This document shows positions 11,739-55,477 of a stretch of 64,000 bases of DNA, in pieces. The notes under the pieces were generated by a model. The model searched no databases, was not told the origin of the DNA, and saw only the letters and a list, made by a program, of their open reading frames with translations. The stretch comes from an uncultured Candidatus Saccharibacteria bacterium (lineage in GTDB: Bacteria > Patescibacteriota > Minisyncoccia > Phycocordibacterales > UBA1006), in assembly GCA_964592365.1 (NCBI GenBank), contig CAZQDL010000001.1, positions 13,198 through 77,197 of the forward strand, written 5' to 3'. The translations under genes and the position numbers were made by a program. The stretch's first letter is position 1; each line of letters starts with the position of its first letter.

Positions 11739-11764
11739 AAAAAGCGTCGAGACTGACGCTTTTT
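11739..11764 (-). terminator. Intrinsic terminator downstream of the 11794..13098 gene
   Basis: aaaaagcgtc-gagact-gacgcttttt. The same AAAAAGCGTC...GACGCTTTTT skeleton occurs in the terminator at 10221. Confidence 0.55.
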
Positions 11765-11793
11765 AAATTTAAATGTTTCTTTAATAAGACTAA

Positions 11794-13098: not shown

Positions 13099-13112
13099 AT
13101 ATCTATTATGCA

Positions 13113-14021: not shown

Positions 14022-14028
14022 AAAAATA

Positions 14029-36472: not shown

Positions 36473-36838
36473 ATGGAAATTATTGAAAAGTATTCGAAAA
36501 AAGATCTTTTAATCTTCAAAGAAATTATTTTAAAAAAGTTAGAAACTGCAGAAAATGATTTAAAATTCTACAGTGGCATTAATCAAAATAATGGTACCGA
36601 CGATACGTCACCATCTTCCAAATCCTTTGATGAAAGTTCAAATGCAACGAGTAAAGAAATGAACATGCAATTGGCAACAAGGCAAGAAAAATTAATTAGA
36701 GATTTGAAAAATGCTCTCACAAGAATTGAAAACAATACTTACGGCATATGTCGCGGTACAGGAAAAAAAATCCCTAAGGAAAGACTTCTTTTGGTACCAC
36801 ACGCTACTATGTCTATAGAAGCAAAAAAAGTTTCATAA
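36473..36838 (+). CDS. DksA/TraR-like protein lacking the complete Cys4 zinc finger
   Basis: The TYGICRGTGKKIPKERLL C-terminal region aligns with the DksA finger but has a single Cys. Confidence 0.45.
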   Translation: MEIIEKYSKKDLLIFKEIILKKLETAENDLKFYSGINQNNGTDDTSPSSKSFDESSNATSKEMNMQLATRQEKLIRDLKNALTRIENNTYGICRGTGKKIPKERLLLVPHATMSIEAKKVS

Positions 36839-38545: not shown

Positions 38546-41077
38546 GTGTATACTATATATATGAAGAAATATTTTATATCCCTTGTGATCATTTCAGCCT
38601 TGGGCTTTTCTGTACAACCAAAAGAGGCTCAGGCTTTTGTAGTTTTTGAAAGTGGAACAAATCTATTTACAAACATTGCAACCACAGCTGAATCTATTTG
38701 GAATACCGCAGCTCAGGAAATTCTTCTGCCAGCGGTTGAAAGAATGATTGAACGAGAGCTTGAAAAAGTTGTTAACAAATCATTAAATCTTGGAGGGGAA
38801 TTACTGGTTACTGATTTGGATCAAGCACTACGTGGAACAGGTTATGCTGCTTTAGCAAATAGATTTAATAGTGCTAATAATTATTACTACCGAACTCTTT
38901 CAGAAAGTGGTATTTGTGCAAGAGACCAGGCTGGTTGTTCACTTAATCCAACAGAGCAGGCTGAACAAAATTATCGCCTCATGGAAGATGGATCGATAAA
39001 CTCAAAAAGAAGTGTTGCTTCAACTATTTCAAAAGTAGCTACAAAATCACTTTTCAGTAATGCTTTAGATAGGGTAATTAAAAGTGATCAAAAATTAATT
39101 AAGAATGAAGATTTTAATCAATCAAATTTTTGGGGAAATTATTTAGAAATTATCAACCCAGAAAGAACAGAGGTTGGAGTATCAGGAGTAGTAACGGGTA
39201 GTTTAAGTGCAGAAGTTACGACCTCTCGAGGGAATTTCTTACGTGACCTTCAAACTCCACAACGATTTCTAGATCAAAAGCGATGTATTGAGTATGAAGT
39301 AGATGACATTACGGGAGAACAGGTTTGTGTGAGGAATGTTACTCTTACTCCAGGAGCTCAAATTGCTGAGAAGGTAAACGAATCAATATTGAAAGATGAA
39401 CGTGTAGCAGGTAGTGCTGAGGGACTTGTTGGTATGCTTATCTCATCAGCAATTGGAAAGGTTACTGATGATTTGATTAGTAAAGGTATTGCTGGAATTA
39501 GTGGAAGACTAAGCGGAGGAAGTAACAATCAAGGGAATATTAATAATTCTGTATTTAACAGTTCAGGTTTAGGAAGATCTGAATTTGATGTCCTTGGAAA
39601 TTCTGTTGATAGTTTTCAAGATAATTCAACTAGGATTTATGATGATTTCCAAGTTGATGGATCTACAGGTGGGGGAGCTTCTATCGGTGGACCAGAAGAT
39701 GGTAACAGTGTTCAGATCACTATTGATTTAAGCGAGGTCATTGAAGAAAACATCCGTTTTGCTGAAGAAGAGCAATCATACTTTGATGAAATTCAATCAA
39801 TTAGAAATAGGAGTAAAGAAACAATCATAGCACTTGATCAGTGTCTGCCTTCTCCTCAATATGGCTGGGAGGAACGTTTCTCTGATATTTTTCAAACATC
39901 AGGAACCAGTGACTATAGTCTTTTGAATTCAATCGCTTTAAGTGAAACAAGACAAATGGTTAATGATCCATGGGTAAATATTCCAGGAGCTTCAGATATT
40001 AGACAATCAATTGATGGAGTTATCTCTGAGACAAAACAAGATCAAGCTCAGAACGCACAAAGAATCTCTGCTGTACGTGAAACTCTTTCAACTCTTCGGT
40101 TTATTAAAGATCAAGTAGTTTCAGATGCAGCTACTCTTGCTGCTTCAAATAGTAGCTTTCAAAATTTAGTGATGTTTGATGACCAATGGTCAAAACTAGG
40201 CGTGCCTGGACAAACAAATGCTTTTAATTCTGCAATAAGTAATAACTACTATTCACTTAAAACAGGTGAAACAGCTTCTTCTATCATCAATGAAAGAAAT
40301 AGCTTTGCTAGAGATATTGTTAAAACTAGATCATGGGACATCTGGAGAGAAAATACAGAGAAAACTAAAAAGAATGATTTGCGATATAGTTTCTTCGTAA
40401 TCCAAAACAAATTATCTAATGAAGAATTCGTAACTCGAGCACGTGTTTTGAAAAACCAAATTGGAAGTAAGTCTGAATTTTCAGAAAGCCTACTACAAGA
40501 TTGTTTTGTTTTCAGGGCATACAGCCTTGGAGCTAGCCAGGCAAATATTCAGCAGACGATAAATAGTAGTAACAACGTAGATGAATTGATTGCCAACTTT
40601 GATAAACTACTAGCACCATATCAAAATATTTCTCACCGTGGTTTCAAACAAGAGTTAACTTTCATTAATACAGATACTGCACGAGATGATGATGAGATTG
40701 GCGAATTCATCAATGATGAATATCAAAAGCAATTGCGTGGTGTTAGTTCGTTGTTCAAAACAACAACAATCACCGGAGCATTGCCAACTAGTATCCTAGG
40801 ATTTGCTAACGAATCAGATAAAGAAGAATACTTTGAAGAAAACTATCCTATTGATGATTTCAAAGATCCGATATCTTTCAACCAAATGAGTGTAAAAGAG
40901 ATGCTTCGTGCAGATAGATTTATCTCAACATATGGAAGAGCACGTGGAATTCGTGGTGTGTTATTCTGTAGAGTGAAAGGAGTATGGGATGCAGGAGCTG
41001 ATAACAGATCAATTTGTTTGCTTGATTGGTATACAACAAGTAATCTTGATTACAACGTTGCTTTTGCCGGAATATAA
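38546..41077 (+). CDS. Large secreted protein (843 aa), first gene of the T4SS-like locus
   Basis: Signal peptide MKKYFISLVIISALGFSVQPKEAQA. No catalytic motif was recognised. Confidence 0.5.
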   Translation: MYTIYMKKYFISLVIISALGFSVQPKEAQAFVVFESGTNLFTNIATTAESIWNTAAQEILLPAVERMIERELEKVVNKSLNLGGELLVTDLDQALRGTGYAALANRFNSANNYYYRTLSESGICARDQAGCSLNPTEQAEQNYRLMEDGSINSKRSVASTISKVATKSLFSNALDRVIKSDQKLIKNEDFNQSNFWGNYLEIINPERTEVGVSGVVTGSLSAEVTTSRGNFLRDLQTPQRFLDQKRCIEYEVDDITGEQVCVRNVTLTPGAQIAEKVNESILKDERVAGSAEGLVGMLISSAIGKVTDDLISKGIAGISGRLSGGSNNQGNINNSVFNSSGLGRSEFDVLGNSVDSFQDNSTRIYDDFQVDGSTGGGASIGGPEDGNSVQITIDLSEVIEENIRFAEEEQSYFDEIQSIRNRSKETIIALDQCLPSPQYGWEERFSDIFQTSGTSDYSLLNSIALSETRQMVNDPWVNIPGASDIRQSIDGVISETKQDQAQNAQRISAVRETLSTLRFIKDQVVSDAATLAASNSSFQNLVMFDDQWSKLGVPGQTNAFNSAISNNYYSLKTGETASSIINERNSFARDIVKTRSWDIWRENTEKTKKNDLRYSFFVIQNKLSNEEFVTRARVLKNQIGSKSEFSESLLQDCFVFRAYSLGASQANIQQTINSSNNVDELIANFDKLLAPYQNISHRGFKQELTFINTDTARDDDEIGEFINDEYQKQLRGVSSLFKTTTITGALPTSILGFANESDKEEYFEENYPIDDFKDPISFNQMSVKEMLRADRFISTYGRARGIRGVLFCRVKGVWDAGADNRSICLLDWYTTSNLDYNVAFAGI

Positions 41078-41097
41078 AAAACCCTTATGGGTTTTTT
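41074..41097 (+). terminator. Intrinsic terminator
   Basis: aaaaaaccc-ttat-gggtttttt. Confidence 0.6.
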
Positions 41098-41139
41098 ATA
41101 TTCCATGACATTTTGAACCTCCTTCGCTATAATAGAAAC

Positions 41140-43257
41140 ATGAATAAACTAAAACATCTTCTTATTGTGTGTGCATTTGCTCTAAGCATGTTCATGCAAC
41201 CATTTTCTTTTTCTCAAGGGGAAGATCAAATAGCAATTATAACGGATATTAATTATTCTTATGCACAAGAAGTAGCCACAAGTAACGATGTATCTGAGGG
41301 TTTCCTTACTGTTGAATGTGATGGAATTGATTTAGGATGTTATTTTGCAAACGGTGTACTTTATTTTTTCCACCTTGTTTGGTATTCAACCACCCAAGTA
41401 CTAGCATTCATTGCAGGATTTACCCTTGATGTACTTTTATTCCACTCAATTAGCAGTGCTACATATCGAACTGGACTTATCGAAGCTGGTTGGGAGATTC
41501 TCAGAAATCTAACTAATATTGTTTTCATTTTCTCTTTACTATTTATCGCCTTTAAAATGGTTCTCTCTGGATCATCATCGATAAAAAAGGTGTTAATCAA
41601 AACTATATTAGTTGCTTTGGTAATTAATTTTAGTTTGTACATGAGTTACGTTATCATTGACTCATCAAATATTTTGGCAAATATTTTCTATCAGCGAATA
41701 GAAATTGATAATCAATCACGGACGACAAATGAATTCATCAATACTTTTTTCTCAGCACAGACAATGAAATCACCGTCTGCAGCATTGGTAAGTAAGTTTG
41801 AACCACAAGCCATCATTACGAAAGCAGGACCTGATTTGAACACAACTCAACGTTTCTTAGTAGTATTTAGTGCTGGTGGAATCAATATTCTAATGATATC
41901 TATCTTCTTAAGTATTATCCTCCTTTTCTTAGGAAGAACGGTAGGGTTAATGCTTTCTGTGATTCTTGCTCCTCTTGCTTTTGTAACCCTAGCAATACCT
42001 ACAAGTGATATGAGTAATATAAAGTGGATTGGTTTTAATTCATGGTTAAAGCAACTCATTACGTTGTCATTTATGGCACCTGTGTACCTATTCTTCTTAT
42101 ATTTGATAATAATATTTGCAAATAACGATGCACTCTTTAATTCTATTAACATTGCAGGGAATACAGGTACAGGAAGTACTAATGTTATTAATATTATCCT
42201 TGGAGTTATTCTTCCTTTCTCTTTGATTGCAATCCTTCTTACAACTGCTAAGAAAATTACCACAGACATGGCTGGTGATCTTGGAGGAAGAATTAGTGAG
42301 TATGCTTCAAAAGGACTCACTGGAGCTGCAGCCGTTGGACTTGGAGCTGCGACTATGGGAATTGCAGCAACTGGTGGTGCAGCAAGACTTCTTGGTAAAG
42401 GTGCTTCAAAAATAGGTATGGAAGGAACAGGTAAATTCCTAGAAGGAGCAGGTAAGTGGGGTCAAACTGCAAAATTTGATGCATCAAAAATTCCTGGTTT
42501 TGAAAATACTTTTGGAAAAAATACCTTTGCATCAAAAGTTGCTAAAGGTATTGGAAGTACAAGCTATTCAGATATTGATACTGGAGTAAGAGGAGCAGCT
42601 AACAAGGTAAGATCAGGTATTAGTGACTTTAATACCGGAAGGACTCCTGAGAGCGTTGCTCAATGGGAAAAAAATGTTCAGGATAGTAGAAATGCTAATA
42701 CTCAAAGGAGAGCTGATAATCAAGCAAGGGTGGCTAGTGACGATGCAAAAACTGAAAGAAATAAAATTGCCATCAATACAGATCCTTTTGGAACAATTAC
42801 TTATATGCCAGAAGGCGCGCGTGTACAAGACAAACTAGAAGAATACAGACAAAAACGTGCTGAGATGGATGAAGCAGCTGTTAAAAGAGAGAAGAAGGAT
42901 ATAGATGATGCAAAAGCAATACTCGAGGCAGAAATTCAGGTTCTTCAAAAAGAATCTAAGGGGTCAACAAACCCTGCTGAAATTGCAACGAAGAAACAGG
43001 CTATTGCCGATAAAAAGAAGAAAATTGAACAAATTGAACAGACATCTACTGAGGGAGTTATCAAACAACTTGAAAAAGTCATTAGTACAGCTGAAACTAA
43101 TGCTAAGGCACAGATGTTCATAGATGATAATTATAATAGAAATAATACTCAGGATTCAAACTTCACGATGTCAGGAGATAGAAGAAGAGAACGTGTCCGG
43201 AAACAAGCATCAGAATACGTTAAGAATGGAGGTAATAATTCTAAAGACAAGAAATAA
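41140..43257 (+). CDS. VirB6/TrbL-like (PrgH/TcpH-like) polytopic membrane protein with a charged coiled-coil C-terminal tail
   Basis: Signal peptide, then about 7 or more TM helices with a large extracytoplasmic loop. Gly/Ala-rich segment GLTGAAAVGLGAATMGIAATGGAARLLGKG. K/E-rich tail. Confidence 0.5.
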   Translation: MNKLKHLLIVCAFALSMFMQPFSFSQGEDQIAIITDINYSYAQEVATSNDVSEGFLTVECDGIDLGCYFANGVLYFFHLVWYSTTQVLAFIAGFTLDVLLFHSISSATYRTGLIEAGWEILRNLTNIVFIFSLLFIAFKMVLSGSSSIKKVLIKTILVALVINFSLYMSYVIIDSSNILANIFYQRIEIDNQSRTTNEFINTFFSAQTMKSPSAALVSKFEPQAIITKAGPDLNTTQRFLVVFSAGGINILMISIFLSIILLFLGRTVGLMLSVILAPLAFVTLAIPTSDMSNIKWIGFNSWLKQLITLSFMAPVYLFFLYLIIIFANNDALFNSINIAGNTGTGSTNVINIILGVILPFSLIAILLTTAKKITTDMAGDLGGRISEYASKGLTGAAAVGLGAATMGIAATGGAARLLGKGASKIGMEGTGKFLEGAGKWGQTAKFDASKIPGFENTFGKNTFASKVAKGIGSTSYSDIDTGVRGAANKVRSGISDFNTGRTPESVAQWEKNVQDSRNANTQRRADNQARVASDDAKTERNKIAINTDPFGTITYMPEGARVQDKLEEYRQKRAEMDEAAVKREKKDIDDAKAILEAEIQVLQKESKGSTNPAEIATKKQAIADKKKKIEQIEQTSTEGVIKQLEKVISTAETNAKAQMFIDDNYNRNNTQDSNFTMSGDRRRERVRKQASEYVKNGGNNSKDKK

Positions 43258-43282
43258 TAAAAAGAACCATCAGGTTCTTTTT
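43257..43282 (+). terminator. Intrinsic terminator
   Basis: aagaacc-atca-ggttcttttt. Confidence 0.55.
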
Positions 43283-43308
43283 ATTATTTCATTTGATATA
43301 CTTTTAAT

Positions 43309-43965
43309 ATGAATACTAATGCTCAAAAAATTAGACACGCTCTTGCTGATTTACCAGAAAATATACAACATGCAGTAAATATTTTTAACTGGGAGAAAAT
43401 TATTCCATCAATAGCCTCAAAGTATAATATTCAATTAGATGAGGCATGGATATTTCAAGAAGAAACAATGAAGGTTGTTGTAGGTATATCTCCTTCCTCT
43501 GAGTATAAGAAAAACTTAATGAAAGCTTTGAATATTAATTCTCAGCTTGCAGAAGCATTACTTTTTGAAGCAAACACTCACATCTTTAAAGAATTACAAC
43601 GATTAGCGTTTAACAGCAAAGATGATGTAGATGATGATATTGTAAGTTCCATGAAAGACGAGGGAATTCACCTTATCGATCATGAGGAAGATATGACCGT
43701 AGATTTTGATGAGGTCTCTGATCATCTCGATGAAGAAACACAGGTTGAAAAACAAGTTTCTCCTTCTGGGTATTCAGAAGAAATTACCGAAGATGATCTC
43801 ATAGGTATTTATGGGCACCGTATAAAAACAGAAGCTATTCCTGAAAAAAAAGATTTTCATGTTGAAGAATCACTACATGGAAAAACTAGGATTTCAAAAG
43901 AAGATAGTTTAATAGTTAAGGATATTAATGATGGTCATTTAGATGTAATAAAAAATAACGCTTAG
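43309..43965 (+). CDS. Acidic hypothetical protein
   Basis: ORF only. D/E-rich. Confidence 0.35.
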   Translation: MNTNAQKIRHALADLPENIQHAVNIFNWEKIIPSIASKYNIQLDEAWIFQEETMKVVVGISPSSEYKKNLMKALNINSQLAEALLFEANTHIFKELQRLAFNSKDDVDDDIVSSMKDEGIHLIDHEEDMTVDFDEVSDHLDEETQVEKQVSPSGYSEEITEDDLIGIYGHRIKTEAIPEKKDFHVEESLHGKTRISKEDSLIVKDINDGHLDVIKNNA

Positions 43966-43974
43966 CGTTATTTT

Positions 43975-44619
43975 TTATGTATTCAACTCTGGAATATTTC
44001 GATGTCCTTCACCTGGGTTAAACATGTTGTAGAATACTTCGATAGCTTGTTGGGTGTTTAGCTGTTCTGAACGTACACCAAAACGTGATAGCCCACCCTT
44101 TACGATAGCTACACGCTGTTCAAGCTGACTTCGCTGTTCTTCGAATCTTTGAGTCTCTTCTTGAAATGACTTTTTCTTTGTAGAAAGTAAGTCCTTAAAT
44201 ATACTACTGGTGCTTTGTTGTGCAGTGAATGCCGCTCCTGAATATGGAACAACTACATAAAATCGTTTAGACATGATATTTACTGAGTCAGTAAACCATC
44301 TGATAAATTCAATATATTCTCTAGTTTGTAATCGAAGAAGCTCTTCTGTTTGTTGTCCAATTCTTTGCTCAAGAGTCATTAGATATGGCTTTATATCATA
44401 TCTACGTGATCCAACTGCAATTTGAACAGGGAAATCAAGTGAGTTGAGGAATCCTTGGAATTGCATAATAACAGCTTGCTGTTCATCTTCTGATTTTAAG
44501 GCAATGTTAATAGCCGAAGCAAGTAATATTGCTCTTAAACTTCCATCTTGAAGTACTACAATACCGTCACGAATTTCTTTGATAGGTATAAAATCTTGTG
44601 TTCTTGGTCCGTTTGCCAT
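43975..44619 (-). CDS. VirB4 N-terminal-domain-like protein (soluble, 214 aa)
   Basis: The N-terminal segment FIPIKEIRDGIVVLQDGSLRAILLASAINIALKSEDEQ resembles the conserved start of VirB4/TrbE ATPases (compare Agrobacterium VirB4 LPYIGHLSDHIVLLEDGSIMSIARIDGVAFELEE). It lies directly downstream of the VirB3-like gene. Confidence 0.45.
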   Translation of the reverse strand: MANGPRTQDFIPIKEIRDGIVVLQDGSLRAILLASAINIALKSEDEQQAVIMQFQGFLNSLDFPVQIAVGSRRYDIKPYLMTLEQRIGQQTEELLRLQTREYIEFIRWFTDSVNIMSKRFYVVVPYSGAAFTAQQSTSSIFKDLLSTKKKSFQEETQRFEEQRSQLEQRVAIVKGGLSRFGVRSEQLNTQQAIEVFYNMFNPGEGHRNIPELNT

Positions 44620-44672
44620 ATGAGTACCTCCAGTATACCACTATTAAAAAAATCTCTCATCAAATGAGAGAT

Positions 44673-45086
44673 TTATTCTTCTGAATCAAGAATATCTAAA
44701 CTCCAAGCAAGGTCAGAAACTCTCTGTTGGTGAATTCGCTGTTGAGTATCTGTAAATAGCTGAGGAGTTTCTGGTAGTTCTTTTATTTCAACTGAATTGC
44801 TCTTTTCTTCTTTTCTTCTCCATAGGTAGAATCTTTCTGAAAAAGCATAGATGAGGTAGGATTCAACCATTTTAATAAAAGGTCGTCCGTTTGGTTTGAT
44901 AAACACTAAAGCTAGGGTAAATGCTGCAATAGGTAAACCAAGTATTACCACAACAAAGGTAGGTAGAAGTCGGTAGATCAAGAAGATAAGTCCACCTCCA
45001 CCAACTAAATAAATAGATTGTTTGAAGGTGAAGGGACCAAATAGCTTATCCTCTACATTAATAAATTGGGGAACTTCAAATCTCAT
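44673..45086 (-). CDS. PrgI/VirB3-like small membrane protein
   Basis: 137 aa. N-terminal FGPFTFKQSIYLVGGGG followed by two TM helices, as in Gram-positive PrgI-family VirB3 analogues. Confidence 0.5.
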   Translation of the reverse strand: MRFEVPQFINVEDKLFGPFTFKQSIYLVGGGGLIFLIYRLLPTFVVVILGLPIAAFTLALVFIKPNGRPFIKMVESYLIYAFSERFYLWRRKEEKSNSVEIKELPETPQLFTDTQQRIHQQRVSDLAWSLDILDSEE

Positions 45087-45122
45087 ACTTTTAGTATATC
45101 TCTATAGTTTTTTTCTGTCATC

Positions 45123-46139
45123 TTAAGATGAAAAAGATATGCTAATATTTTCTGAAGCTGATTGTAAAATATTATTTATACTGTCTAGATTTACCCCAAT
45201 ATCAACATTTCCAGATTGTCCTCCTGATGAAATAAATAGTTCATTCTGTCTTCCAAAATCTTGAGGAGCTTGATTTTCATTATTGATAGACCACTGTACG
45301 AAAAGATCAGTAAAATTTCTTTGTATAGTACTCATGTGTAAAGGATGGAAAGAAAATTTTACCTGAGATCCATTTATTTCTGAACGAGTATTTAATGCTC
45401 TTTGAGTAAGAATTCTTTCCTTTTCATCAATTTCGTAGAATAAGATTTTTGGTAAGAAGGTATTTGTTGAAATATCAATAGTGTTACGCGCAAAAGAGTT
45501 TTCTCTTCTGTCATTTGCCGTCACGCTAATCTTTTCAGTAAAGTTTAGCGCCCCTGCTTCTATCGTATATGATTGTCTTCCAAAACCAGATGCCTTACTA
45601 TCATTAGTGTAATTATTTTCCCAATAGTAAATTAAATTTTTAGCATCAGTTGGTGAAATTAACTGAGTTTGAGGAATTGCTGTTATCTTTATCGTTGATT
45701 GAGGTAAGGGAAGTACCTTTCCTTTATAAAAAGGAGGGATATATCCATCTTCAACTTCCCAAAGAAGATCTATTTCTGAAGGTGAAAATCTAAGTTCTTT
45801 TCTAAAAACCTGATTACCAATTTCAATAACAGCAGTAAGGTTAGTTACACTACCTAAAGAGCCTGTTCTAAAAACAAATTCCTTTGCTCCATAATCTGCG
45901 CTTTTTCTCTCACCATTTTCAAACCAAGAAATATAATAGTTATTAAGATTAAAGCTATAACTATTAAGAATTACTCGAACTTCTTCATCAACTCCAGGAA
46001 TAAGGGGGATTGTTTCAACTAAAATATCGTTTTCTGAATAAAGTGATACCCCTTGGGCCTTCACTTCTTTGGTAACAAGAAAAAAACTGATTATCAGAAA
46101 AAAGATTAGAGATATAGTCAGTAGAGGTTTTCTTTTCAT
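45123..46139 (-). CDS. Secreted or bitopic protein (338 aa), possible T4SS accessory component
   Basis: N-terminal signal/anchor sequence. No known motif. In an operon with the VirB3-like and VirB4N-like genes. Confidence 0.4.
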   Translation of the reverse strand: MKRKPLLTISLIFFLIISFFLVTKEVKAQGVSLYSENDILVETIPLIPGVDEEVRVILNSYSFNLNNYYISWFENGERKSADYGAKEFVFRTGSLGSVTNLTAVIEIGNQVFRKELRFSPSEIDLLWEVEDGYIPPFYKGKVLPLPQSTIKITAIPQTQLISPTDAKNLIYYWENNYTNDSKASGFGRQSYTIEAGALNFTEKISVTANDRRENSFARNTIDISTNTFLPKILFYEIDEKERILTQRALNTRSEINGSQVKFSFHPLHMSTIQRNFTDLFVQWSINNENQAPQDFGRQNELFISSGGQSGNVDIGVNLDSINNILQSASENISISFSS

Positions 46140-46219
46140 TTATACTTATATTATACCTAGACATATATATTTAACAAAAGTAATTTATTTTAATATAGAT
46201 ATATCGTATAATAGTAAGC

Positions 46220-48376
46220 ATGAAAAAGTTTTTATTATTTTCACTCCTTACTATTATCTTCTCTTTTGGTGTTCAATATAACAATGAAGCTATTGCTCAA
46301 GAAGAATGTTCTGTTACTTCAGCTTCGTTTAGTGAAATTACGGGGTGGACAAGTAGCAACCGGTTTGAAGGAAACTTTACAAACCTAACCATTAGTACTT
46401 CAGGTGACTGTTCTGCTGGATTAAGCATTAACTTAAAAAAAGTAGATGATAGAGGAAAACACTTGCCGGCTGTTATTAATAAAATGCCAGCAAAACTTGT
46501 ACCTGGTCCTATATCTAAGAAAATAATTGCCAAGTTTAAGCTTTATGAAGATACCTGTTATGGATACAATAATGAATCTACTCGCGGCCTTAATTGGGGA
46601 TATGACTGTGTTACATATATTGAAATAACTCATAAAGATAAGGTAATATTTTCACCTAAAAATGTAACAGGATTCAATGCTGACTACATTCGAGATACCA
46701 AAGATTCAATCGTAGAGATGAGAAATCAAGGAATTCTACTTGGAAACTGTACCTTAGATTGTGCATACGGTACTCAAGATGAGAAAGGTGCTCATAACTG
46801 GATTTTTTGGGGGACGTTTGATGGAAATGGCTCAATTGGAGATTCAAATGCCCTTCAAAGTAAATGTAAAATAACCGACGAAGATGTTTCTTTCAGCGGG
46901 ATGAAGAATAGAGTAATAACAAATGCTTCTCCTGTACTAAAAATAAATACTAAAGACTGTATTGGTGTTAAATTAAGTGTAAGCCTTATGGAAGGAAGTG
47001 GTTACATAGATATTGAAATTAATGATGACGTTACGAGGACAACGATTGATGTTATCCCAAAAGATGAAGTTGTTACTTTTTTATATGAAGCAGGGAATGA
47101 GGAGTGTAATATTTTAGGTAATCCTGATTGTCAGATATATCTTTACATACAATACAATGGAAATGTCTATAGTAATGAGGAACTTCTTACCGGTCACATA
47201 TACAAATATGCTGAGTCAGAAACATATTCTTCATACTTAGATGATGGAATCCTTCTTGGAGATTGTGCTTATGTTGCTCCCACTAATCAATTTAATTTTG
47301 TATCAAATTGTTTAGCTGGAAAAAGTGATTGGACCCTAAAGGGAGTAGATGGAGTTGAAACATCAGCAACAGGATCTCCTGCACAAGAAGTTGCCATTAC
47401 ACAAAAATTTGATAGAAATCACCCCTGTCACAATGGAAAATCTGGAGATGAAGAGGCATATCTCCGAGATTGTTATGAACTCCTTGCTCCCATTCCTGGA
47501 ATCTCAAGTACATATACTGATGGATCAGGATCAACAAGAAGTACTGGTTTTGAAGTAACAGAAGATGGACGTCAGTTTGTTAAAAACATTGGTCAATTAC
47601 AAATTGGTGATTATATAAATACTTTAGTAAGGATTGCATTAGGAGTACTTATTGTTCTTTCAATTATCATGATAATAATTGCAGGAGTTGAGTACATGGT
47701 TCAAGAAAGTATGTTTGGAAAATCTGCTGCGAAATCAAGAATTGCTAATGCATTAAGTGGTCTAATTGTTGGATTAAGTATCTATTTAATCCTTTCAACA
47801 ATTAACCCACAACTTCTTGAAGTTAACTTTTCACCACCAGTACAAGAACTACTGGTTATCGGAGATGGAGGGGTTGAGCCAGTTGATCTTCCTTCTTTTG
47901 ATATTCCAGGAAACAGTTTGTGTAGTAGCTTTACTACTATTAACCAACCGGGGGCTATTCGCGCTAAAAAATTCAGTGTATGTAGCACGATAGCACCTAA
48001 GATTAATAATTTACTGAAAGATGCAAAGGCCGATGGTATTATTCTTAGTGCTTACGGGGCAAGAGAAACAAAAAAACAGATCGAATTACGAGTTAAAAAC
48101 TGTGGGGGTACTGCTCAGGTATATAATCCAAAAGCTACTTGTAAACCTCCAACAGCTCTCCCAGGTCAATCTATGCATGAAAGTGGATTAGCTTTAGATT
48201 TTATTTGTGTTGATGGAAACAAAGAAGGAACTGTTAATGTACATGAAGGAAATACAAATGGAACTAAAAAGGAGTGGACAAGGGGATGCTATGAATGGAT
48301 CAAGAAAAATGCATCTAAATATGGACTGAAGGGTCTCAAATCAGAAAATTGGCACTGGTCAACAACAGGAAGATAA
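46220..48376 (+). CDS. Surface protein with an internal TM hairpin and a C-terminal M15 (VanY/D-Ala-D-Ala carboxypeptidase-like) peptidoglycan peptidase domain
   Basis: Signal peptide. Two TM helices at about aa 465-525. C-terminal SAYGAR...QSMHESGLALDF...ENWHW matches the LAS/M15 motifs (SxHxxGxAxD and a terminal His). Confidence 0.6.
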   Translation: MKKFLLFSLLTIIFSFGVQYNNEAIAQEECSVTSASFSEITGWTSSNRFEGNFTNLTISTSGDCSAGLSINLKKVDDRGKHLPAVINKMPAKLVPGPISKKIIAKFKLYEDTCYGYNNESTRGLNWGYDCVTYIEITHKDKVIFSPKNVTGFNADYIRDTKDSIVEMRNQGILLGNCTLDCAYGTQDEKGAHNWIFWGTFDGNGSIGDSNALQSKCKITDEDVSFSGMKNRVITNASPVLKINTKDCIGVKLSVSLMEGSGYIDIEINDDVTRTTIDVIPKDEVVTFLYEAGNEECNILGNPDCQIYLYIQYNGNVYSNEELLTGHIYKYAESETYSSYLDDGILLGDCAYVAPTNQFNFVSNCLAGKSDWTLKGVDGVETSATGSPAQEVAITQKFDRNHPCHNGKSGDEEAYLRDCYELLAPIPGISSTYTDGSGSTRSTGFEVTEDGRQFVKNIGQLQIGDYINTLVRIALGVLIVLSIIMIIIAGVEYMVQESMFGKSAAKSRIANALSGLIVGLSIYLILSTINPQLLEVNFSPPVQELLVIGDGGVEPVDLPSFDIPGNSLCSSFTTINQPGAIRAKKFSVCSTIAPKINNLLKDAKADGIILSAYGARETKKQIELRVKNCGGTAQVYNPKATCKPPTALPGQSMHESGLALDFICVDGNKEGTVNVHEGNTNGTKKEWTRGCYEWIKKNASKYGLKGLKSENWHWSTTGR

Positions 48377-48379
48377 TAT

Positions 48380-50035
48380 ATGAAAATCAATATCAAAAAA
48401 GTAATACTCTTTATCATCATTAGTACCGCACTCATTTTAGGAGGGGTATGGCTTTTTGGATATTTTCAAAATGGTAATCAAGGTGAAGAAACTTCAGGTG
48501 GTTTAAGAAATTTATTTCCATTCGGAGAAATCTTTTCTGGATCAAGGAATGAAGAAAATAGTCAAAACATCATTCTTGATGAAAATGGTAATCCTGTTCA
48601 ACAAGTTGATGGAGAAGAAGATGTTGTTAATGCAACAAGACCTCAACTTCAACTTATCACAAATAAACCAACAGGTGGTTTTGTAGCCTTAACAAGAATT
48701 ACACAGGAAGAAGTACTCACTGAAACAACCTTGCCTGACGGAACAACAAGTCAGCAATCATCTATTGCAGATATTGAGCAATCTCTCATTCGATATAGTG
48801 ATATTAATTCTGGTACGATATATGAAACAGCTCTCGGTGGTGAAAATGCATTCAATGAAGTAAAGGTGATTGATAATGTGATACCAAATGCTGAACACTC
48901 ATTTTTCTCAGCTAATGGTAACCATGTAGCCTTTCAATATTGGGATGAGGGAGATAGAGAAATAGAAACATATCTAGCAACGATAAGTCTTCTCTCATAC
49001 CAAGCTGAGCCTTGTGGATATAGTTTTGAAGGAACTCTAGTGCTTGGCGAAGAAAGTGAGTTTGCACTCAATCTCCATCGTTTCCTTAACTTAGTTCCAG
49101 AAACACAATTAGCAAGCTCAGGGATAAATAGTTTAGGAAATGAATCTCCTTTAGTAACACAGTCTACTTTCGATGCTATATCACGCTTCCAGACAGTTCA
49201 TAATCTTTCTGTTGATGGTTCATTAGGTCCTCAGACACGTTCAAAAATGATAGAAGTATGTAATCTTCAAGAAGAACAAAAGGCTAAGGAACGTTTTGAA
49301 AATTCAGATACTAAATATGAAATCTTTGGATCTTTTCTTCCAGAAGGAATAGTAAGTTTAAGTATGCACCCTCTTGAAAATAAACTTTTCTTTTTAGAAA
49401 AGAGTGCTTCAGGGATATTAGGGAATATATACGATCTAATGTCACAAGAACGGAAAACCGTATTTACATCACCATTCACTGAATGGTTAAGCTATTGGAA
49501 TATTGGTAGAAATGTTGAACTTGTAACCAAACCAAGTTATGGAGTTGAAGGGTATAGTTATAACTTGAATATTGATAATGGTGATTACAAAAAATCATTT
49601 AGAGAACGAAAAGGTCTTATGGTATTACCAAGTCCTGATGATAAGAAATTATTAGTATTTGATACTGAACAAGGTAGACCGAGTCTATCTATCTATGAAA
49701 GAGAATTAAATAGATTTCTCCCTCTATCCATTCAAACCTTTATAGATAAGTGTGTATGGTCAACTACTAGTGAATATCTCTTCTGTGGCGTTCCTGATTC
49801 GTTTGGATATGGTGATGTATACCCTGATACGTGGTATCAAGGACTTGAAACATACAGTGATAGTCTATGGAGAATTGACGCAACAACTCTTGAAGAAGAA
49901 GTTCTAAGCGACATGGTTAGTGATTATTCATTAAGCATTGATATTGAAAAAATTAATATTGATAGAAAAAATGAATTTCTGTTCTTTATTGATAAGAATT
50001 CTGAATTTCTTTGGAGTTATCGTATAGAAGAATAA
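48380..50035 (+). CDS. Membrane-anchored protein with a PG_binding_1-like domain and a C-terminal beta-rich domain
   Basis: N-terminal TM helix. TQSTFDAISRFQTVHNLSVDGSLGPQTRSKM fits the peptidoglycan-binding domain pattern. It is translationally coupled to the upstream M15 gene (4-nt gap). Confidence 0.5.
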   Translation: MKINIKKVILFIIISTALILGGVWLFGYFQNGNQGEETSGGLRNLFPFGEIFSGSRNEENSQNIILDENGNPVQQVDGEEDVVNATRPQLQLITNKPTGGFVALTRITQEEVLTETTLPDGTTSQQSSIADIEQSLIRYSDINSGTIYETALGGENAFNEVKVIDNVIPNAEHSFFSANGNHVAFQYWDEGDREIETYLATISLLSYQAEPCGYSFEGTLVLGEESEFALNLHRFLNLVPETQLASSGINSLGNESPLVTQSTFDAISRFQTVHNLSVDGSLGPQTRSKMIEVCNLQEEQKAKERFENSDTKYEIFGSFLPEGIVSLSMHPLENKLFFLEKSASGILGNIYDLMSQERKTVFTSPFTEWLSYWNIGRNVELVTKPSYGVEGYSYNLNIDNGDYKKSFRERKGLMVLPSPDDKKLLVFDTEQGRPSLSIYERELNRFLPLSIQTFIDKCVWSTTSEYLFCGVPDSFGYGDVYPDTWYQGLETYSDSLWRIDATTLEEEVLSDMVSDYSLSIDIEKINIDRKNEFLFFIDKNSEFLWSYRIEE

Positions 50036-50036
50036 T

Positions 50037-50064
50037 AAATACCACGTTTGTGGTATTTATTTTG
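50037..50064 (+). terminator. Intrinsic terminator
   Basis: aaataccac-gtttg-tggtatttattttg. Confidence 0.55.
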
Positions 50065-50097
50065 TTACAAACATAAAATTCATAGTATACTATATGC

Positions 50098-51945
50098 ATG
50101 TCATTGATTTCAGATCTACTTGAAACAAATAAAAATAAGGGAGTTCAAATAAAGCAAACTGCTGTTCCTGTAATGCCTGGTGATATCTACAAAACAGCAA
50201 CACTAGAACTTCAGGATGTTTTAGCTCCAGCAGCACTTGAAATTGGCCCTAAATCAATAAAAATTGCAGGAAAAACATCACGTACTTTTTTTGTTATGTC
50301 ATATCCTCGTTTTCTAACTGATGGATGGCTTGCTCCTATTGTTAATCTGGATAAGGTTTTTGATGTTGGAATTCATATTCACCCTATTGCAACAGAAAAA
50401 ATACTTAATGAATTTAAGAAAAAAGTTGCTGAAGTTCAATCACAAATCAATGATAGGGAATCAAAAGGCTTGGTTCGTGATCCAATTTTAGATACTGCAT
50501 ATCAAGACCTTGAACAACTGCGAGATGCTCTACAGCAAGCTCAAGAAAAAATATTCTCTGTTGGTTTATATATCACTATCTATGCTGAAAGTGATGATGA
50601 ATTGTATAAGACAGAGAATGAAATTAGATCTCTACTTGAATCAAAATTGGTATATTTAAAACCAGCATTGTTTCAACAAGTAGAAGGTTTCTTATCTGTT
50701 GCACCATTAGGGGATGATCGTTTGGAAGTTCACACAAAGTTAAATACAGGACCTGTATCATCCTTCTTTCCATTTATTTCCTCAGAACTTACTGACAACA
50801 AGGGAATTCTCTATGGTATTAATAGACATAATTCTGGATTAGTTATTTTTGATAGGTATTCATTACCTAACTACAACTCTGTGATATTTGCTACTTCAGG
50901 AGCAGGAAAGTCATATGCAACGAAGTTAGAGATTCTTCGAACTATGATGTTTGATACTGAAGTTATTGTTATTGACCCTGAGCGTGAGTATGAATACTTA
51001 GCAGAAGCTGTTGGAGGACGTTACTTTAACATTTCTCTTTCTTCAGAACATCACATTAACCCTTTTGATGTTCCTGAACCTCTTGATGATGAAGATCCAT
51101 CAGATGTGTTAAGAACACATATTATTCACTTAGTTGGTCTCTTTAGAATTATGTTAGGAGGATTATCTCCTGAAGAAGATTCTATTATCGATAGAGCTAT
51201 TACTGAAACCTATGCACTTAAAGACATTAGCGTTTCAAGTAACTACAAGGGAATTGAACCTCCACTTATGTCAGATTTTGAGATGGTTCTCTCTTCAATG
51301 GATGGAAGTGATTCACTTCTTGCAAGACTTACTAAATATACTCATGGAACATGGTCTGGTTTTATTAACAAACCATCAAATGTTGATATTAACAGGAAAC
51401 TGGTTGTATTCTCAATTAGAGATATGGAAGATGATCTTAAGCCAGCTGCTATGTATATCATCACCCAATTCATCTGGAATGCAGTTAGAAAGAACATCAA
51501 GAAAAGGTTGTTGGTAGTTGATGAGGCTTGGTGGATGATGAAGTCAGATGATACTGCTTCATTCCTATTTATGATTGCAAAACGTGGAAGAAAATATTTC
51601 TTAGGTCTTGCAACGATAACTCAAGACGTTGGTGACTTCATCAAATCACGATATGGAGTACCTATTATCACTAACAGCTCAATGCAATTACTTCTCAAGC
51701 AATCGCCCAGTGCTATTGATAATCTTCAGGAGATATTCAGATTAACTGATGAAGAGAAATATCTCCTTATGGAATCTGGAGTAGGTGAAGGAATATTCTT
51801 TGCAGGTATGAAGCATGTGGCTATTAAAATAATTGCATCATACACCGAAGATCAAATTATCACCTCTGATCCTGCTCAAGTACTTTCAATTAAAAAGGCA
51901 AAACAAGATTTGAGAGATGCAAATGCTCAAGGCTATGCAAATTAA
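50098..51945 (+). CDS. virB4: VirB4/TrbE/CagE-family conjugation-type ATPase (Gram-positive short form)
   Basis: Walker A ATSGAGKSYATK, Walker B LLVVDEAWWMM, and the conserved N-terminal RTFFVMSYPRFL region. Confidence 0.8.
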   Translation: MSLISDLLETNKNKGVQIKQTAVPVMPGDIYKTATLELQDVLAPAALEIGPKSIKIAGKTSRTFFVMSYPRFLTDGWLAPIVNLDKVFDVGIHIHPIATEKILNEFKKKVAEVQSQINDRESKGLVRDPILDTAYQDLEQLRDALQQAQEKIFSVGLYITIYAESDDELYKTENEIRSLLESKLVYLKPALFQQVEGFLSVAPLGDDRLEVHTKLNTGPVSSFFPFISSELTDNKGILYGINRHNSGLVIFDRYSLPNYNSVIFATSGAGKSYATKLEILRTMMFDTEVIVIDPEREYEYLAEAVGGRYFNISLSSEHHINPFDVPEPLDDEDPSDVLRTHIIHLVGLFRIMLGGLSPEEDSIIDRAITETYALKDISVSSNYKGIEPPLMSDFEMVLSSMDGSDSLLARLTKYTHGTWSGFINKPSNVDINRKLVVFSIRDMEDDLKPAAMYIITQFIWNAVRKNIKKRLLVVDEAWWMMKSDDTASFLFMIAKRGRKYFLGLATITQDVGDFIKSRYGVPIITNSSMQLLLKQSPSAIDNLQEIFRLTDEEKYLLMESGVGEGIFFAGMKHVAIKIIASYTEDQIITSDPAQVLSIKKAKQDLRDANAQGYAN

Positions 51946-51968
51946 AAGCTTCTGTATATCAGAAGCTT
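51945..51968. terminator. Bidirectional terminator (virB4 / jag)
   Basis: aaagcttct-gtatatc-agaagcttt. Confidence 0.65.
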
Positions 51969-52415
51969 TTATTCTTTAATCATTTTCAAACGTCTATCTA
52001 TTCCTTGTCCTTCTGAAACAGTACTCACTCCAGGTATTTGAGCAGTAAGGTGGTGAACGAGCATTCTTTTAAAAGAGCTTAATCTTCCAAATTCGTATGG
52101 TTTACCAAATTGTAAAACTCTTTTAGAGGCTATAGCTGTTATCTCCTTTATATATTCAATTTCTTTACATGTTTCTCCATTAATATCGATAAGATATTCT
52201 TCTTCAAGTGAAAGGGAATTGATAATATGTTTCACTATGTAGGAAAAGGCATCAAGGAATTCCTTCTTATTCTCTCCTTTGTATACTGATGATGGAATAG
52301 TGAAGGACACAACAGAGAAACCAAGTTCCTTTTCATGGATACACTCAACCATATTAATATTCAATCTAAAATATGAGAGAAATTTACTAAGTTCTTTTTC
52401 AAGGATACTGTTCAT
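51969..52415 (-). CDS. Jag/KhpB-like RNA-binding protein (R3H domain)
   Basis: C-terminal R3H-like LSSFKRMLVHHLTAQIPGVSTVSEGQG. Positioned downstream of yidC as in the canonical operon. The start was chosen at MNSILE to avoid overlapping yidC. Confidence 0.55.
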   Translation of the reverse strand: MNSILEKELSKFLSYFRLNINMVECIHEKELGFSVVSFTIPSSVYKGENKKEFLDAFSYIVKHIINSLSLEEEYLIDINGETCKEIEYIKEITAIASKRVLQFGKPYEFGRLSSFKRMLVHHLTAQIPGVSTVSEGQGIDRRLKMIKE

Positions 52416-52441
52416 ATCTCTAGTATACCAAAAGAAAAAAC

Positions 52442-53167
52442 CTATGCTTCGCTTAGGTTTTCTTTTGTTATTTTCTTCTGTAGATACTGTTCTTGAATAA
52501 TCATAAATACATTTGAAGTTATCCAATATAGTGCAACAGCTCCACCGATAACATAGGCAAATACGGTGATCATAACCGGCATGATGTATTTCATTGATTG
52601 CTGAACCATCATCATCATCTTTTCTTGCTCAGTTTGATTTTCCACACTGTCATCTTTCTTCATGGTAGAAGCAGTAGCAAGATAAATGTATTGAGTAAAT
52701 CCAGTAAGGAAGGCGAGAAGTATGCTTTTTTGTGATAAGTCTAAACCAAAACTAGTTTTTACAATGAGGTCTGGTTCCTGAACAAATGAGTAGAGTAGTG
52801 TAGGATCAATTTCAAGTCCTCCATCTTTGAATACCCAATATAATGCGAGGATAATAGGTAATTGAACAAGAATTAAGAAGAAACTTGAGAAGGGATTAAC
52901 TCCATGCTTCTTGTATAAAGCTAAGGTAGCCCTTGCTTGCTCCTGCTTATCCTTAATGAGCTTAATATCCTTAAGCATAGGTTGCAGTTGCTTTGTCTTT
53001 AATTGAGTCTTAATTGCCTTATATGAAAGCGGAGAGATAAGTAAACGTACAATAATGGTAAGTATTATAACAGCAAGAAACAATGAATTATTAGGGAGAG
53101 TATCTATAATAAAAAAGAGTGCATTGTACAGTGGTTTATAAAAAATAATATTCCAAAGAGTAACCAT
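52442..53167 (-). CDS. yidC: Membrane protein insertase YidC (short, monoderm type)
   Basis: 241 aa, about 5 TM helices, conserved hydrophilic-groove region. Located in the rnpA-yidC operon. Confidence 0.8.
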   Translation of the reverse strand: MVTLWNIIFYKPLYNALFFIIDTLPNNSLFLAVIILTIIVRLLISPLSYKAIKTQLKTKQLQPMLKDIKLIKDKQEQARATLALYKKHGVNPFSSFFLILVQLPIILALYWVFKDGGLEIDPTLLYSFVQEPDLIVKTSFGLDLSQKSILLAFLTGFTQYIYLATASTMKKDDSVENQTEQEKMMMMVQQSMKYIMPVMITVFAYVIGGAVALYWITSNVFMIIQEQYLQKKITKENLSEA

Positions 53168-53199
53168 ACAGAAGATTGTAGCAGATGAACTAAAACAAG

Positions 53200-53532
53200 C
53201 TAGTTTTTAATAGACAACAATAATATTGTTAATGAAGAAGAAAGTTCTTCAAAAGTAGCATGATCAATTGATTCTTTTAACGAGACAATAATACTTTTTC
53301 CTGGCAATAGCTGTGGATAGATATTTGCTATTATTTGGGCAATTTTTCTCTTATTTTTATTCCTTTGATAAGCTTTTTTATAAATCTTTTTTGGAATTAC
53401 AACTGCACATTTTGTTATTTCTTCTTTTAAATCAAATACTTGAATCTGAAAATATGTATTCGAAAAACGTTGCCCTTTTTTAAGAACCAGAAGATGTTCC
53501 TTACTATTTAATTTTTGTGATTTTTTTAGCAT
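53200..53532 (-). CDS. rnpA: Ribonuclease P protein component
   Basis: Basic 110-aa protein lying between rpmH and yidC. Confidence 0.7.
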   Translation of the reverse strand: MLKKSQKLNSKEHLLVLKKGQRFSNTYFQIQVFDLKEEITKCAVVIPKKIYKKAYQRNKNKRKIAQIIANIYPQLLPGKSIIVSLKESIDHATFEELSSSLTILLLSIKN

Positions 53533-53575
53533 AAGAATGGTTCTGGTAGATAAAAACCCTTAAAAATAAGGGTTT

Positions 53576-53725
53576 TTATGCAACGGTAAGACGCTTTCGT
53601 TCTTTTCGTCGACGAGTAAGGATTATTTTTCTACCTCCTGCAGTTTTCATTCGTGCAAGAAATCCATGTACCTTAAACATCTTTCTATTTTTTCTTTTTC
53701 TTAATGTTTGTGACTTAGCTGCCAT
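53576..53725 (-). CDS. rpmH: 50S ribosomal protein L34
   Basis: The translation MAAKSQTLRKRKNRKMFKVHGFLARMKTAGGRKIILTRRRKERKRLTVA is not in the supplied ORF track because it is under 60 aa. It was read manually. Confidence 0.85.
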   Translation of the reverse strand: MAAKSQTLRKRKNRKMFKVHGFLARMKTAGGRKIILTRRRKERKRLTVA

Positions 53726-53816
53726 GATAGTATTTATCTTAAGTAAATAAAGATAATGTTGATATTAATATACTTGTGAAAATAAGCAAGTCTTTATTTT
53801 TATTATTTTTTAATTC

Positions 53817-53848
53817 TTTTCCACAGAGTTATGCACCATTTGGATAAC
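53817..53848. promoter_or_regulatory. DnaA-box-like motifs upstream of dnaA
   Basis: TTTTCCACA at 53817-53825 and TTATCCA, read on the reverse complement of tggataac, at 53841-53848. Consensus is TTATCCACA. Confidence 0.5.
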
Positions 53849-53895
53849 TTACTTTTTTCCTTTTTTAGTATTATATTAGTTGTAGTAAAAAACCT

Positions 53896-55251: not shown

Positions 55252-55477
55252 GTATGTGAATTTCGTGTTAATTAACTGAAGTACCTTCTGTGGAAAATAA
55301 CTGGGGAAATAATTGATTGAGGATAACTCATATTTAGTCACAGAAATACACACAGTGAAAAAATTATAAAATAGACATAAAAGCTTTATAAAATAATATT
55401 TTTTACACTATCAACACTTTCCACACCCCTAATAATAACTATAATTAATTTATATATAACTAACTACTTTTAATACT
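55252..55477. promoter_or_regulatory. Probable oriC (dnaA-dnaN intergenic region with DnaA boxes and an AT-rich DUE-like tract)
   Basis: tgtggaaaa at 55289-55297 is the reverse complement of TTTTCCACA. ggataact at 55321-55328 gives TTATCC. cTTTCCACAc at 55417-55426. An AT-rich tract at 55430-55477. Confidence 0.55.

Follow-up and report, generated by a model that had tools for sequence, protein, structure and literature searches.

The stretch 38546-51945 of the window, the 64-kb piece of DNA analysed here, carries a cluster of genes for a type IV secretion system (T4SS); all coordinates given below are window positions. With a probability of roughly 0.85, we regard this locus as a chromosomal, vertically inherited T4SS of the Patescibacteria type, which derives from the conjugation machinery of monoderm bacteria with mating-pair formation of the FATA type (MPF-FATA) and is no longer mobile. 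It is of a known kind, published between 2023 and 2025, and represents a complete, ordinary example from the Paceibacteria, not a discovery. A first reading made from the sequence alone, referred to here as the sequence-only reading, had proposed a T4SS of the monoderm type, lacking relaxase and coupling protein, located on the chromosome by dnaA in a genome of the Candidate Phyla Radiation and probably not serving plasmid transfer, and this proposal is supported by the tests that were run. Since the system, the lack of a relaxase, the MPF-FATA ancestry and the proximity to dnaA are all published, the proposal is not new, and its remark that such loci are largely uncharacterised is outdated (PMC10633639, 2023; PMC12102498, 2025; PMC12857230, 2025).

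For Southlakia epibionticum ML1, a saccharibacterium, Wang et al. reported an “apparent T4SS” (SEML1_0006-0019) similar to Gram-positive conjugation systems; transposon sequencing (Tn-seq) found the T4SS, including its pilin subunits, to be essential for epibiotic growth, and recognisable coupling and relaxase proteins were lacking (Wang et al., 2023; PMC10633639). Quinonero-Coronel et al. detected VirB4 in 2,417 of 3,035 surveyed Patescibacteria genomes, and the 2,425 VirB4 sequences form a monophyletic group nested in MPF-FATA (Quinonero-Coronel et al., 2025; PMC12102498). According to the same study, TrsD ranks first in abundance among the accessory components; PrgI/VirB3, VirB6 and VirB2-like pilins occur near virB4; and dnaA, dnaN, rnpA, rpmH and ksgA are found near virB4 chiefly in Paceibacteria and Microgenomatia, which is read as a possible gene-dosage effect. 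The system is also summarised in a nomenclature review (PMC12857230, 2025).

The profile matches show that the cluster encodes what, judged by homology, is an energising module, consisting of the ATPase VirB4, a separate TrsD protein resembling the N-terminus of VirB4, and the VirB3-like anchor PrgI. The VirB4 protein of 615 amino acids (aa) matches P-loop_TraG (1.4e-26) as well as AAA_10 and DUF87 in Pfam, and it matches the NCBIfam model conju_CD1110 with 1.8e-111 and 373.7 bits, above the cutoff of 325, over profile positions 182-733. Its Walker A motif reads ATSGAGKS, and its nearest solved relative is the C-terminal domain of VirB4 from the Firmicute Thermoanaerobacter (4ag5, 1.2e-41), with R388 TrwK reaching only 1.2e-7. 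The protein is without the extreme N-terminal segment, which is the part that TrsD resembles. The 214-aa TrsD protein matches the NCBIfam models TrsD (4e-7, profile positions 17-200 of 201), VirB4_plasma (3.6e-9) and conju_CD1110 (positions 1-138), all under the cutoffs of these full-length models, as is expected for a protein of fragment size; its precomputed Pfam match is PF26593 (TraC-like), and its comparison with PDB sequences returned noise only. Since TrsD matches the first ~140 positions of the VirB4 model and VirB4 covers 182-733, the two genes would jointly correspond to a full-length MPF-FATA VirB4. PrgI matches PF12666 with 9.7e-10 and 39.3 bits, above the cutoff of 27, and contains one two-helix hydrophobic hairpin (residues 27-66), as expected for the family. 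The VirB4 and PrgI assignments of the sequence-only reading are thereby both confirmed by their profiles.

The 714-aa protein is accepted here as VirB6-like, mainly because of its predicted fold and family, with each line of evidence individually weak. It has about 7-8 hydrophobic segments between residues 15 and 383, followed by a charged tail of 274 aa that is predicted to be a coiled coil. The protein itself has no match in Pfam or NCBIfam, and the VirB6/TrbL-like character attributed to it beforehand therefore lacks a direct profile match; it is upheld by the predicted fold and by TrbL matches of homologues. Among 55 homologues, Pfam matches were obtained to TrbL in two (4.9e-5), to TrbL_3 in one (7.1e-6) and to TrbL_4 in one. 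Residues 1-440 were modelled confidently by AlphaFold2 (pLDDT 80.4, pTM 0.74), and the top Foldseek matches of this model in the PDB are R388 TrwI/VirB6 (probability 0.96-0.97, E ~0.04) and also the Legionella DotA protochannel. When a profile of 72 homologues was compared with PDB sequences, the only matches were coiled-coil noise caused by the C-terminal tail.

The lineage of the locus follows from its homologues. The databases contain over 8000 homologues of VirB4. The best 120 are 73-99% identical, and the named ones among them are assigned to Candidatus Paceibacteria, Pacebacteria or Nomurabacteria, in agreement with the genome type of the Candidate Phyla Radiation suggested by the sequence-only reading. 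From the 73-99% identity to Paceibacteria VirB4s we infer a placement inside the published Patescibacteria clade. Close VirB4 relatives are encoded on 588 stretches in species-representative genomes, and 80 loci were fetched from related genomes, chosen by VirB4 similarity. The gene set is syntenic across these 80 loci, near yidC, dnaA and dnaN. The usual order on one strand is the 843-aa family (not always present), the VirB6-like family, the 218-aa family (likewise), PrgI, TrsD, VirB4, and the families of the 338-aa, pilin-hydrolase and 551-aa proteins, followed by jag, yidC and rnpA on the other strand, with dnaA and dnaN next. TrsD was present in 77 of the 80 loci, the 338-aa family in 76, PrgI in 74, the 551-aa family in 71, the VirB6-like family and yidC in 64 each, and dnaA in 56.

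The degree of conservation differs between the components. Compared with the loci L005-L080, the median identity of the window proteins is 72% for VirB4, a rank inflated by the VirB4-based selection of the loci, 55% for TrsD, 52% for DnaA, 42% for both DnaN and YidC, and 41% for PrgI, whereas the envelope-exposed T4SS proteins reach 23-34%. The gradient is clear despite the selection bias, as the cytoplasmic parts are conserved (41-72%) and the surface parts evolve fast, which points to a vertically inherited core machine whose outer parts would be under selection from the environment or a host.

The window deviates from the usual order. Its plus strand carries, in this sequence, the genes for the 843-aa, 714-aa, 218-aa, 718-aa, 551-aa and 615-aa proteins, and a trio on the minus strand (214-aa, 137-aa and 338-aa genes) sits between the 218-aa and the 718-aa genes. 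In the nearest relatives (L001, L002) as well as in the window, virB4 stands at the 3' end of the cluster, and only in the window, compared with these two, are the PrgI-TrsD pair and the 338-aa gene additionally on the opposite strand; in relatives, the TrsD gene lies almost always directly upstream of virB4. Gene maps were available for one 228-kb ENA contig and for contigs from four samples of the JGI, with 17 similar places collapsed. The TrsD gene was found on at least 23 independent contigs and the rearranged order recurs in every gene map shown, so that a fixed rearrangement is indicated, neither a misassembly nor a switch. An invertible switch with phase variation was considered and rejected, as there are no notable flanking inverted repeats except for a 15-nt palindrome and the orientation is constant in the maps shown. 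This palindrome is perfect, lies at 43948-43978, where the 218-aa gene and trsD converge with their stop codons, and looks terminator-like. Since PrgI and TrsD are physically unlinked from virB4, TrsD and VirB4 are truly separate genes for which neither adjacency nor co-transcription is needed; this separation in the lineage appears to be under-described.

The rearranged gene order and the missing relaxase and coupling protein are also what a decaying, functionless remnant of an integrated conjugative element might display. We consider such a remnant scarcely credible, since all open reading frames (ORFs) are intact, the Walker A and M15 active-site motifs are preserved, VirB4 keeps 70-93% identity over dozens of species and is more conserved than DnaA, the same arrangement returns in the independent assemblies mentioned above, and no boundaries of an integrative and conjugative element (ICE) are present.

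The vertically inherited, non-mobile T4SS is further supported by what surrounds the cluster. A Pfam scan of the 64 kb covered all ORFs of 100 aa or more, except for two embedded in longer genes, and revealed neither a coupling protein of the VirD4/TcpA type (type IV coupling protein, T4CP) nor a relaxase. In agreement with the missing T4CP, the only convincing Walker A proteins of the window are VirB4, DnaA, PilB, RuvB and UvrD/PcrA, and the claim that no VirD4 or relaxase is visible in the window stands on both the Pfam scans and this survey. The recombinase 0.7 kb upstream of the locus is of the Xer type (XerA/XerC/XerD models with ~222 bits), and no ICE-type integrase was found in the 64 kb. 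There is no tRNA flanking the locus, the only Rfam matches of the window being three tRNAs 7 kb away, and no att-like direct repeats flank it. The G+C content is flat across the locus at 0.32-0.36 and matches that of the remaining window. The core, non-mobile character of the system is concluded from these observations together with the shared synteny. A complete ICE or other conjugative element, named beforehand as the finding that would make this an ordinary mobile element, was therefore rejected, since a relaxase, a T4CP, an ICE-type integrase and att boundaries are all missing from the window, the G+C content is uniform and the position is conserved.

The locus could also be a working conjugation apparatus for the export of DNA, with the genes for its coupling protein and relaxase situated in another part of the genome. 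Its components share homology with those of MPF-FATA conjugation systems, genes for T4CPs are often far from virB4, and 5,713 VirD4-like homologues were reported in 2,918 Patescibacteria genomes (PMC12102498). However, relaxases are seldom encountered in the phylum (109, spread over 103 of the 3,035 genomes), and none is found in the 64-kb window; the distant t4cp of Southlakia is non-essential whereas its T4SS genes are essential (PMC12102498); and a fixed synteny by dnaA across hundreds of species is unlike the transfer apparatus of a mobile element. Conjugation is thus judged improbable.

The 718-aa protein, encoded directly upstream of the 551-aa gene, is a modular protein consisting of a variable N-terminal ectodomain, a pilin core and an exchangeable C-terminal cell wall hydrolase. 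The M15 peptidase domain had been named beforehand and is confirmed by the VanY profile (Table 1); its zinc and catalytic motifs are intact (SMHESGLALD, ENWH), and comparison with the PDB gives weak matches to VanY-type carboxypeptidases. The pilin core had been missed, as had TrsD, so that the minimal mating-pair-formation set of the sequence-only reading contained parts that are indeed present but was incomplete. In the window protein, residues 461-527 match T4SS_pilin (PF18895) below threshold (0.0082), and the segment also weakly matches a pilin-like protein of a Mycoplasma ICE in NCBIfam. Syntenic homologues were gathered from 40 related loci for the pilin test, and 32 of the 40 match T4SS_pilin (best 1.8e-8) and 10 match TrbC/VirB2, with at least two (L036, L043) exceeding the PF18895 cutoff. 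A hidden Markov model (HMM) of the pilin core, built from the syntenic homologues, matches residues 423-541 of the 718-aa protein with 1.2e-33 as its sole match in the window. ORFs with this core, from 168 to 761 aa long, are found near virB4 in 71 of the 80 loci (one in 66, two in 5). The core consists of two hydrophobic helices (464-497 and 507-533) separated by a K/R-rich loop, and by VirB2 topology the regions flanking it would both be extracellular. The ectodomain shows only a weak internal similarity over 55 residues (E 0.004 for a single comparison).

The C-terminal hydrolase varies among the 40 homologues: NlpC/P60 was found in 10, VanY in 6, Peptidase_M15_4 in 2, YkuD in 4, Amidase_5 in 3, and Amidase_2, SLT and CHAP in one each. 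In ten homologues checked singly, a hydrolase was detectable in six and always lay C-terminal to the pilin core. The closest relative, with a VirB4 91% identical, has NlpC/P60 in place of the VanY domain of the window. Example loci with the modular pilin protein are L001:5978-8224, L043:12932-14023 and L017:11840-13684. The main text of PMC12102498 makes no mention of a pilin-hydrolase fusion or of module swapping, and that of PMC10633639 mentions pilins only as separate subunits; the fusion with module swapping thus appears to be under-described in these main texts, and novelty is not claimed. It is conceivable, if rather doubtful, that the Paceibacteria T4SS pilin does not act as a small free-standing subunit but serves as the membrane or polymerisation core of a modular surface protein whose swappable hydrolase is aimed at the wall of the host and not at the cell's own. 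If this were true, the T4SS would display or release the hydrolase, module swapping would track host range, and the pilin-hydrolase protein would be the host-breaching tip of the machine. Since the sole pilin-like element is fused to an exchangeable hydrolase, it would be a natural first target for studies of localisation, processing and substrate specificity, and this modularity is the only lead from the locus worth following.

The remaining proteins of the cluster are envelope or accessory proteins, and the large secreted and surface proteins noted in the sequence-only reading are recognisable in the signal-peptide-like N-terminus of the 843-aa protein and in the helix and three immunoglobulin (Ig)-like sandwiches of the 338-aa protein. 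The 843-aa ORF likely starts at the ATG at 38561, which gives 838 aa, as do gene callers. The protein has no match in Pfam, NCBIfam or the PDB. In the 8-9 loci with a sufficiently long flank, weak homologues (~23% identity) immediately precede the VirB6-like gene; the 843-aa gene is a putative fast-evolving accessory gene. The 218-aa protein matches no Pfam or NCBIfam family, and a homologue was detected in only 11-13 of the 80 loci. The 338-aa protein was modelled with AlphaFold2 (pLDDT 88.3) and gave generic Ig/adhesin matches in Foldseek, for example to SiiE (1.7e-8); its family normally sits directly downstream of virB4 in related loci. The 551-aa protein bears out the expected peptidoglycan-binding membrane protein, with an N-terminal anchor (residues 1-30), the PG_binding_1 domain and a conserved C-terminal domain of unrecognised fold. 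PG_binding_1 is detectable in 8 of ~30 scanned members of its family, and a match to SusB among PDB sequences was discarded as short and probably spurious.

Taken together, a machine can be proposed in which VirB4, TrsD and PrgI would dock on a VirB6-like translocon in the single membrane, with PrgI anchoring the ATPase assembly. The pilin core may polymerise or be seated in the VirB6 platform, and the M15 domain, which by VirB2 topology and the positive-inside rule would be outside the cell, may open the peptidoglycan locally and thereby take the role of VirB1. The pilin core and the Ig-domain proteins could build an extracellular stalk or contact structure, and the Ig-domain and peptidoglycan-binding proteins could form or brace the part that spans the wall. 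The machine would support a host-dependent way of life: it would send proteins or a pilus to the host cell, or move molecules that derive from the host, and would not carry out relaxase-driven plasmid transfer. This role is inferred by analogy with Southlakia, in which the homologous cluster is essential and comEC is not.

A T4SS-derived machine of this kind might instead take up DNA, like Helicobacter ComB or archaeal Ced, and feed a nucleotide-auxotrophic cell. Importers derived from T4SSs do exist, the ABY1-class locus lies near comF, recG and radA (PMC12102498), and VirB4 has a weak partial similarity to CedB (1.1e-8, 34 bits) and CedD. These matches fall far below their cutoffs (34 against 700 bits for CedB, 16 against 600 for CedD) and cover the P-loop region only. 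Moreover, competence in Saccharibacteria is brought about by ComEC and type IV pili, and loss of comEC stops transformation with viability kept, while the T4SS is essential (PMC12857230). Since the comEC deletion is viable, ComEC-mediated DNA uptake does not account for the requirement for the T4SS; the window also contains a pilB gene. A DNA-uptake machine is therefore quite improbable.

Several points weigh against the interpretation as a non-mobile, host-directed Patescibacteria T4SS. The essentiality and the host dependence are extrapolated from a different class, the Saccharimonadia. A T4CP could lie elsewhere in the genome, as many distant T4CP homologues are reported in Patescibacteria (PMC12102498). 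The assignment of the VirB6-like protein is below threshold in each single test (Foldseek E 0.04, TM-score 0.27-0.39, no direct Pfam match), and the pilin segment of the window reaches 16.6 bits where the Pfam cutoff is 26.6, so that its tie to the members above the cutoff runs only through the family HMM. No VirB8-like component was identified in the locus. Finally, the exact origin of replication (oriC) is not fixed, with DnaA boxes at chance level and a cumulative GC-skew minimum at ~33-38 kb.

The sequence-only reading had placed the locus adjacent to the replication origin. The start of dnaA indeed lies 1.95 kb past virB4, and the dnaA-dnaN pair and the rnpA-yidC-jag block support proximity to the origin, which itself was not located by DnaA boxes or skew. 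Across the window, 31 DnaA-box matches with at most one mismatch were counted against 23.9 +/- 4.6 expected, which is not significant. Small clusters occur at 53817-53847, 55289-55326 and 61649-61740; three DnaA-box-like 9-mers with one mismatch each fall within 92 bp between ruvB and pilB, and weaker pairs flank dnaA. The GC-skew minimum is ~16-20 kb to the left of dnaA and coincides with a switch of the coding strand. The features of the locus and the adjoining block are listed in Table 1.

Table 1. Features of the T4SS locus and of the adjoining housekeeping block, in window positions.
Feature	Position	Strand	Evidence or remark
Secreted protein of unknown fold, 843 aa	38546..41077	+	Signal-peptide-like N-terminus
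VirB6-like (“extended VirB6”) polytopic membrane protein, 714 aa	41113..43257	+	Fold and family-level evidence
Stem-loop, perfect 18 bp, terminator-like	43251..43290		Overlaps 3' end of VirB6-like gene
Acidic soluble protein, 218 aa	43309..43965	+	45 D+E against 22 K+R; poorly conserved
TrsD-family protein, similar to VirB4 N-terminal domain, 214 aa	43975..44619	-	NCBIfam; adjoins PrgI gene
PrgI/VirB3-like small membrane protein, 137 aa	44673..45086	-	PF12666
Surface protein, 338 aa	45123..46139	-	N-terminal membrane helix/signal and three tandem beta-sandwiches similar to Ig/fibronectin type III
Modular envelope protein, 718 aa	46220..48376	+	Signal peptide, Cys-rich ectodomain of ~440 aa, pilin core, M15/VanY peptidase
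VirB2-like pilin core (residues 423-541)	47486..47842	+	Family HMM
M15/VanY peptidase domain (residues 588-714)	47981..48361	+	VanY, Pfam 1.5e-8
Membrane-anchored peptidoglycan-binding protein, 551 aa	48380..50035	+	PG_binding_1, residues 244-290, Pfam 5.6e-6
VirB4 ATPase, MPF-FATA affinity, 615 aa	50098..51945	+	Pfam, NCBIfam and PDB match
Terminator-like hairpin	51943..51971	+	Directly 3' of virB4
Origin-proximal housekeeping block	51969..56578	jag (R3H), yidC, rnpA -; dnaA, dnaN +	Pfam; context, not machinery

Within the housekeeping block, the yidC product has 241 aa and dnaA spans 53896-55251; 3' of dnaA, Pfam identifies dnaN, ruvC, a class A penicillin-binding protein, yebC and ruvB. Upstream of the locus are genes for an inorganic pyrophosphatase, the tyrosine recombinase, a DksA/TraR-type zinc-finger protein, an exonuclease III-type nuclease and a CCA-adding enzyme. 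A 62-aa ORF at 43124-43312, overlapping the VirB6-like gene at its end, has no matches, was not predicted by any gene caller and was not counted as a gene. Promoter-like sites were not enriched and terminator-like sites were at chance level.

Other observations concern the rest of the window. The pilB gene mentioned by the sequence-only reading is real: an ORF for an ATPase of the PilB/GspE type (Walker A GPTGSGKT) at 62036-64000 on the plus strand runs off the end of the window, which places type IV pilus genes ~10 kb from the T4SS. The 64 kb contain two DksA/TraR-type C4 zinc-finger proteins, at 23446-23796 (-) and 36473-36838 (+), and one of these genes is 1.7 kb upstream of the T4SS locus. 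Large unassigned proteins are encoded at 23845-27042, 10253-14352 and 19868-22156, all on the minus strand, and the unassigned set includes a second PG_binding_1 protein (1065 aa) and a run of four unannotated genes. A 626-aa protein at 8328-10208 (+) ends in a type-A sorting domain of the type IX secretion system (T9SS; Por_Secre_tail, 1.3e-16 in Pfam; TIGR04183, 8e-16). The T9SS is a system of the Bacteroidota and unexpected in a monoderm Paceibacteria genome. The gene may have been acquired from a Bacteroidota host, or the protein may point to an association with one. The locus L002 (JBLIKX010000014.1) has the same T4SS-dnaA synteny and a VirB4 88% identical, and its metagenome-assembled genome is labelled Crocinitomicaceae (Bacteroidota), which is probably a binning error; the label and the T9SS-tail protein together might hint at a co-occurrence with Bacteroidota.

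Patescibacteria account for a large part of bacterial diversity and seem to live on other cells. In Southlakia, the only cultivated species examined by Tn-seq, their conjugation-derived T4SS is essential. The window adds no new kind of system to this picture; it provides a clean, complete and independently re-assembled Paceibacteria example, in which VirB4, TrsD and PrgI are separable as genes, since the lineage has unlinked them physically, and this could guide experiments.

Compared with known systems, the VirB6-like protein is only 14% identical to R388 TrwI/VirB6 (PDB 7o3v, 8rt9), without a sequence-profile match, and it differs by its additional charged C-terminal tail of 274 aa and its monoderm origin. 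With the MPF-FATA systems of Firmicutes (pGO1 TrsC/TrsD/TrsE, pCF10 PrgH/PrgI/PrgJ/PrgK and C. difficile conjugative transposon CD1110), the locus shares the CD1110-type VirB4, PrgI and a wall hydrolase in the cluster, as PrgK and TrsG are, and with pGO1 it shares a separate TrsD alongside VirB4. In contrast to these systems, the window shows no relaxase, no T4CP, no recognisable origin of transfer (oriT) and no mobile-element context; no PrgB-like adhesin and no VirB8-like PrgL/TraM were detected in the window; its hydrolase is an M15 peptidase instead of SLT and CHAP; and it has a VirB2-like pilin core, which those systems lack. The Southlakia T4SS, the only member with functional data, is likewise Gram-positive-like: it has pilin-type subunits and wall-hydrolase genes beside virB4, and neither a coupling protein nor a relaxase is recognisable in its cluster. 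It differs in class (Saccharimonadia) and encodes divergent VirB2-like pilins in an array of six separate genes, whereas the window has one pilin core, which is fused. The closest agreement is with the T4SS of the Patescibacteria clade (PMC12102498), as both have an MPF-FATA-type VirB4, TrsD, PrgI/VirB3, a VirB6-like protein and a VirB2-like pilin near virB4, no relaxase or T4CP nearby, and a chromosomal position beside rnpA, dnaA and dnaN. Unlike the usual order of that clade, the window has the genes for PrgI, TrsD and the 338-aa protein in reverse orientation and virB4 in the 3'-terminal position, and its single pilin core lies within a 718-aa protein with a C-terminal M15 peptidase.

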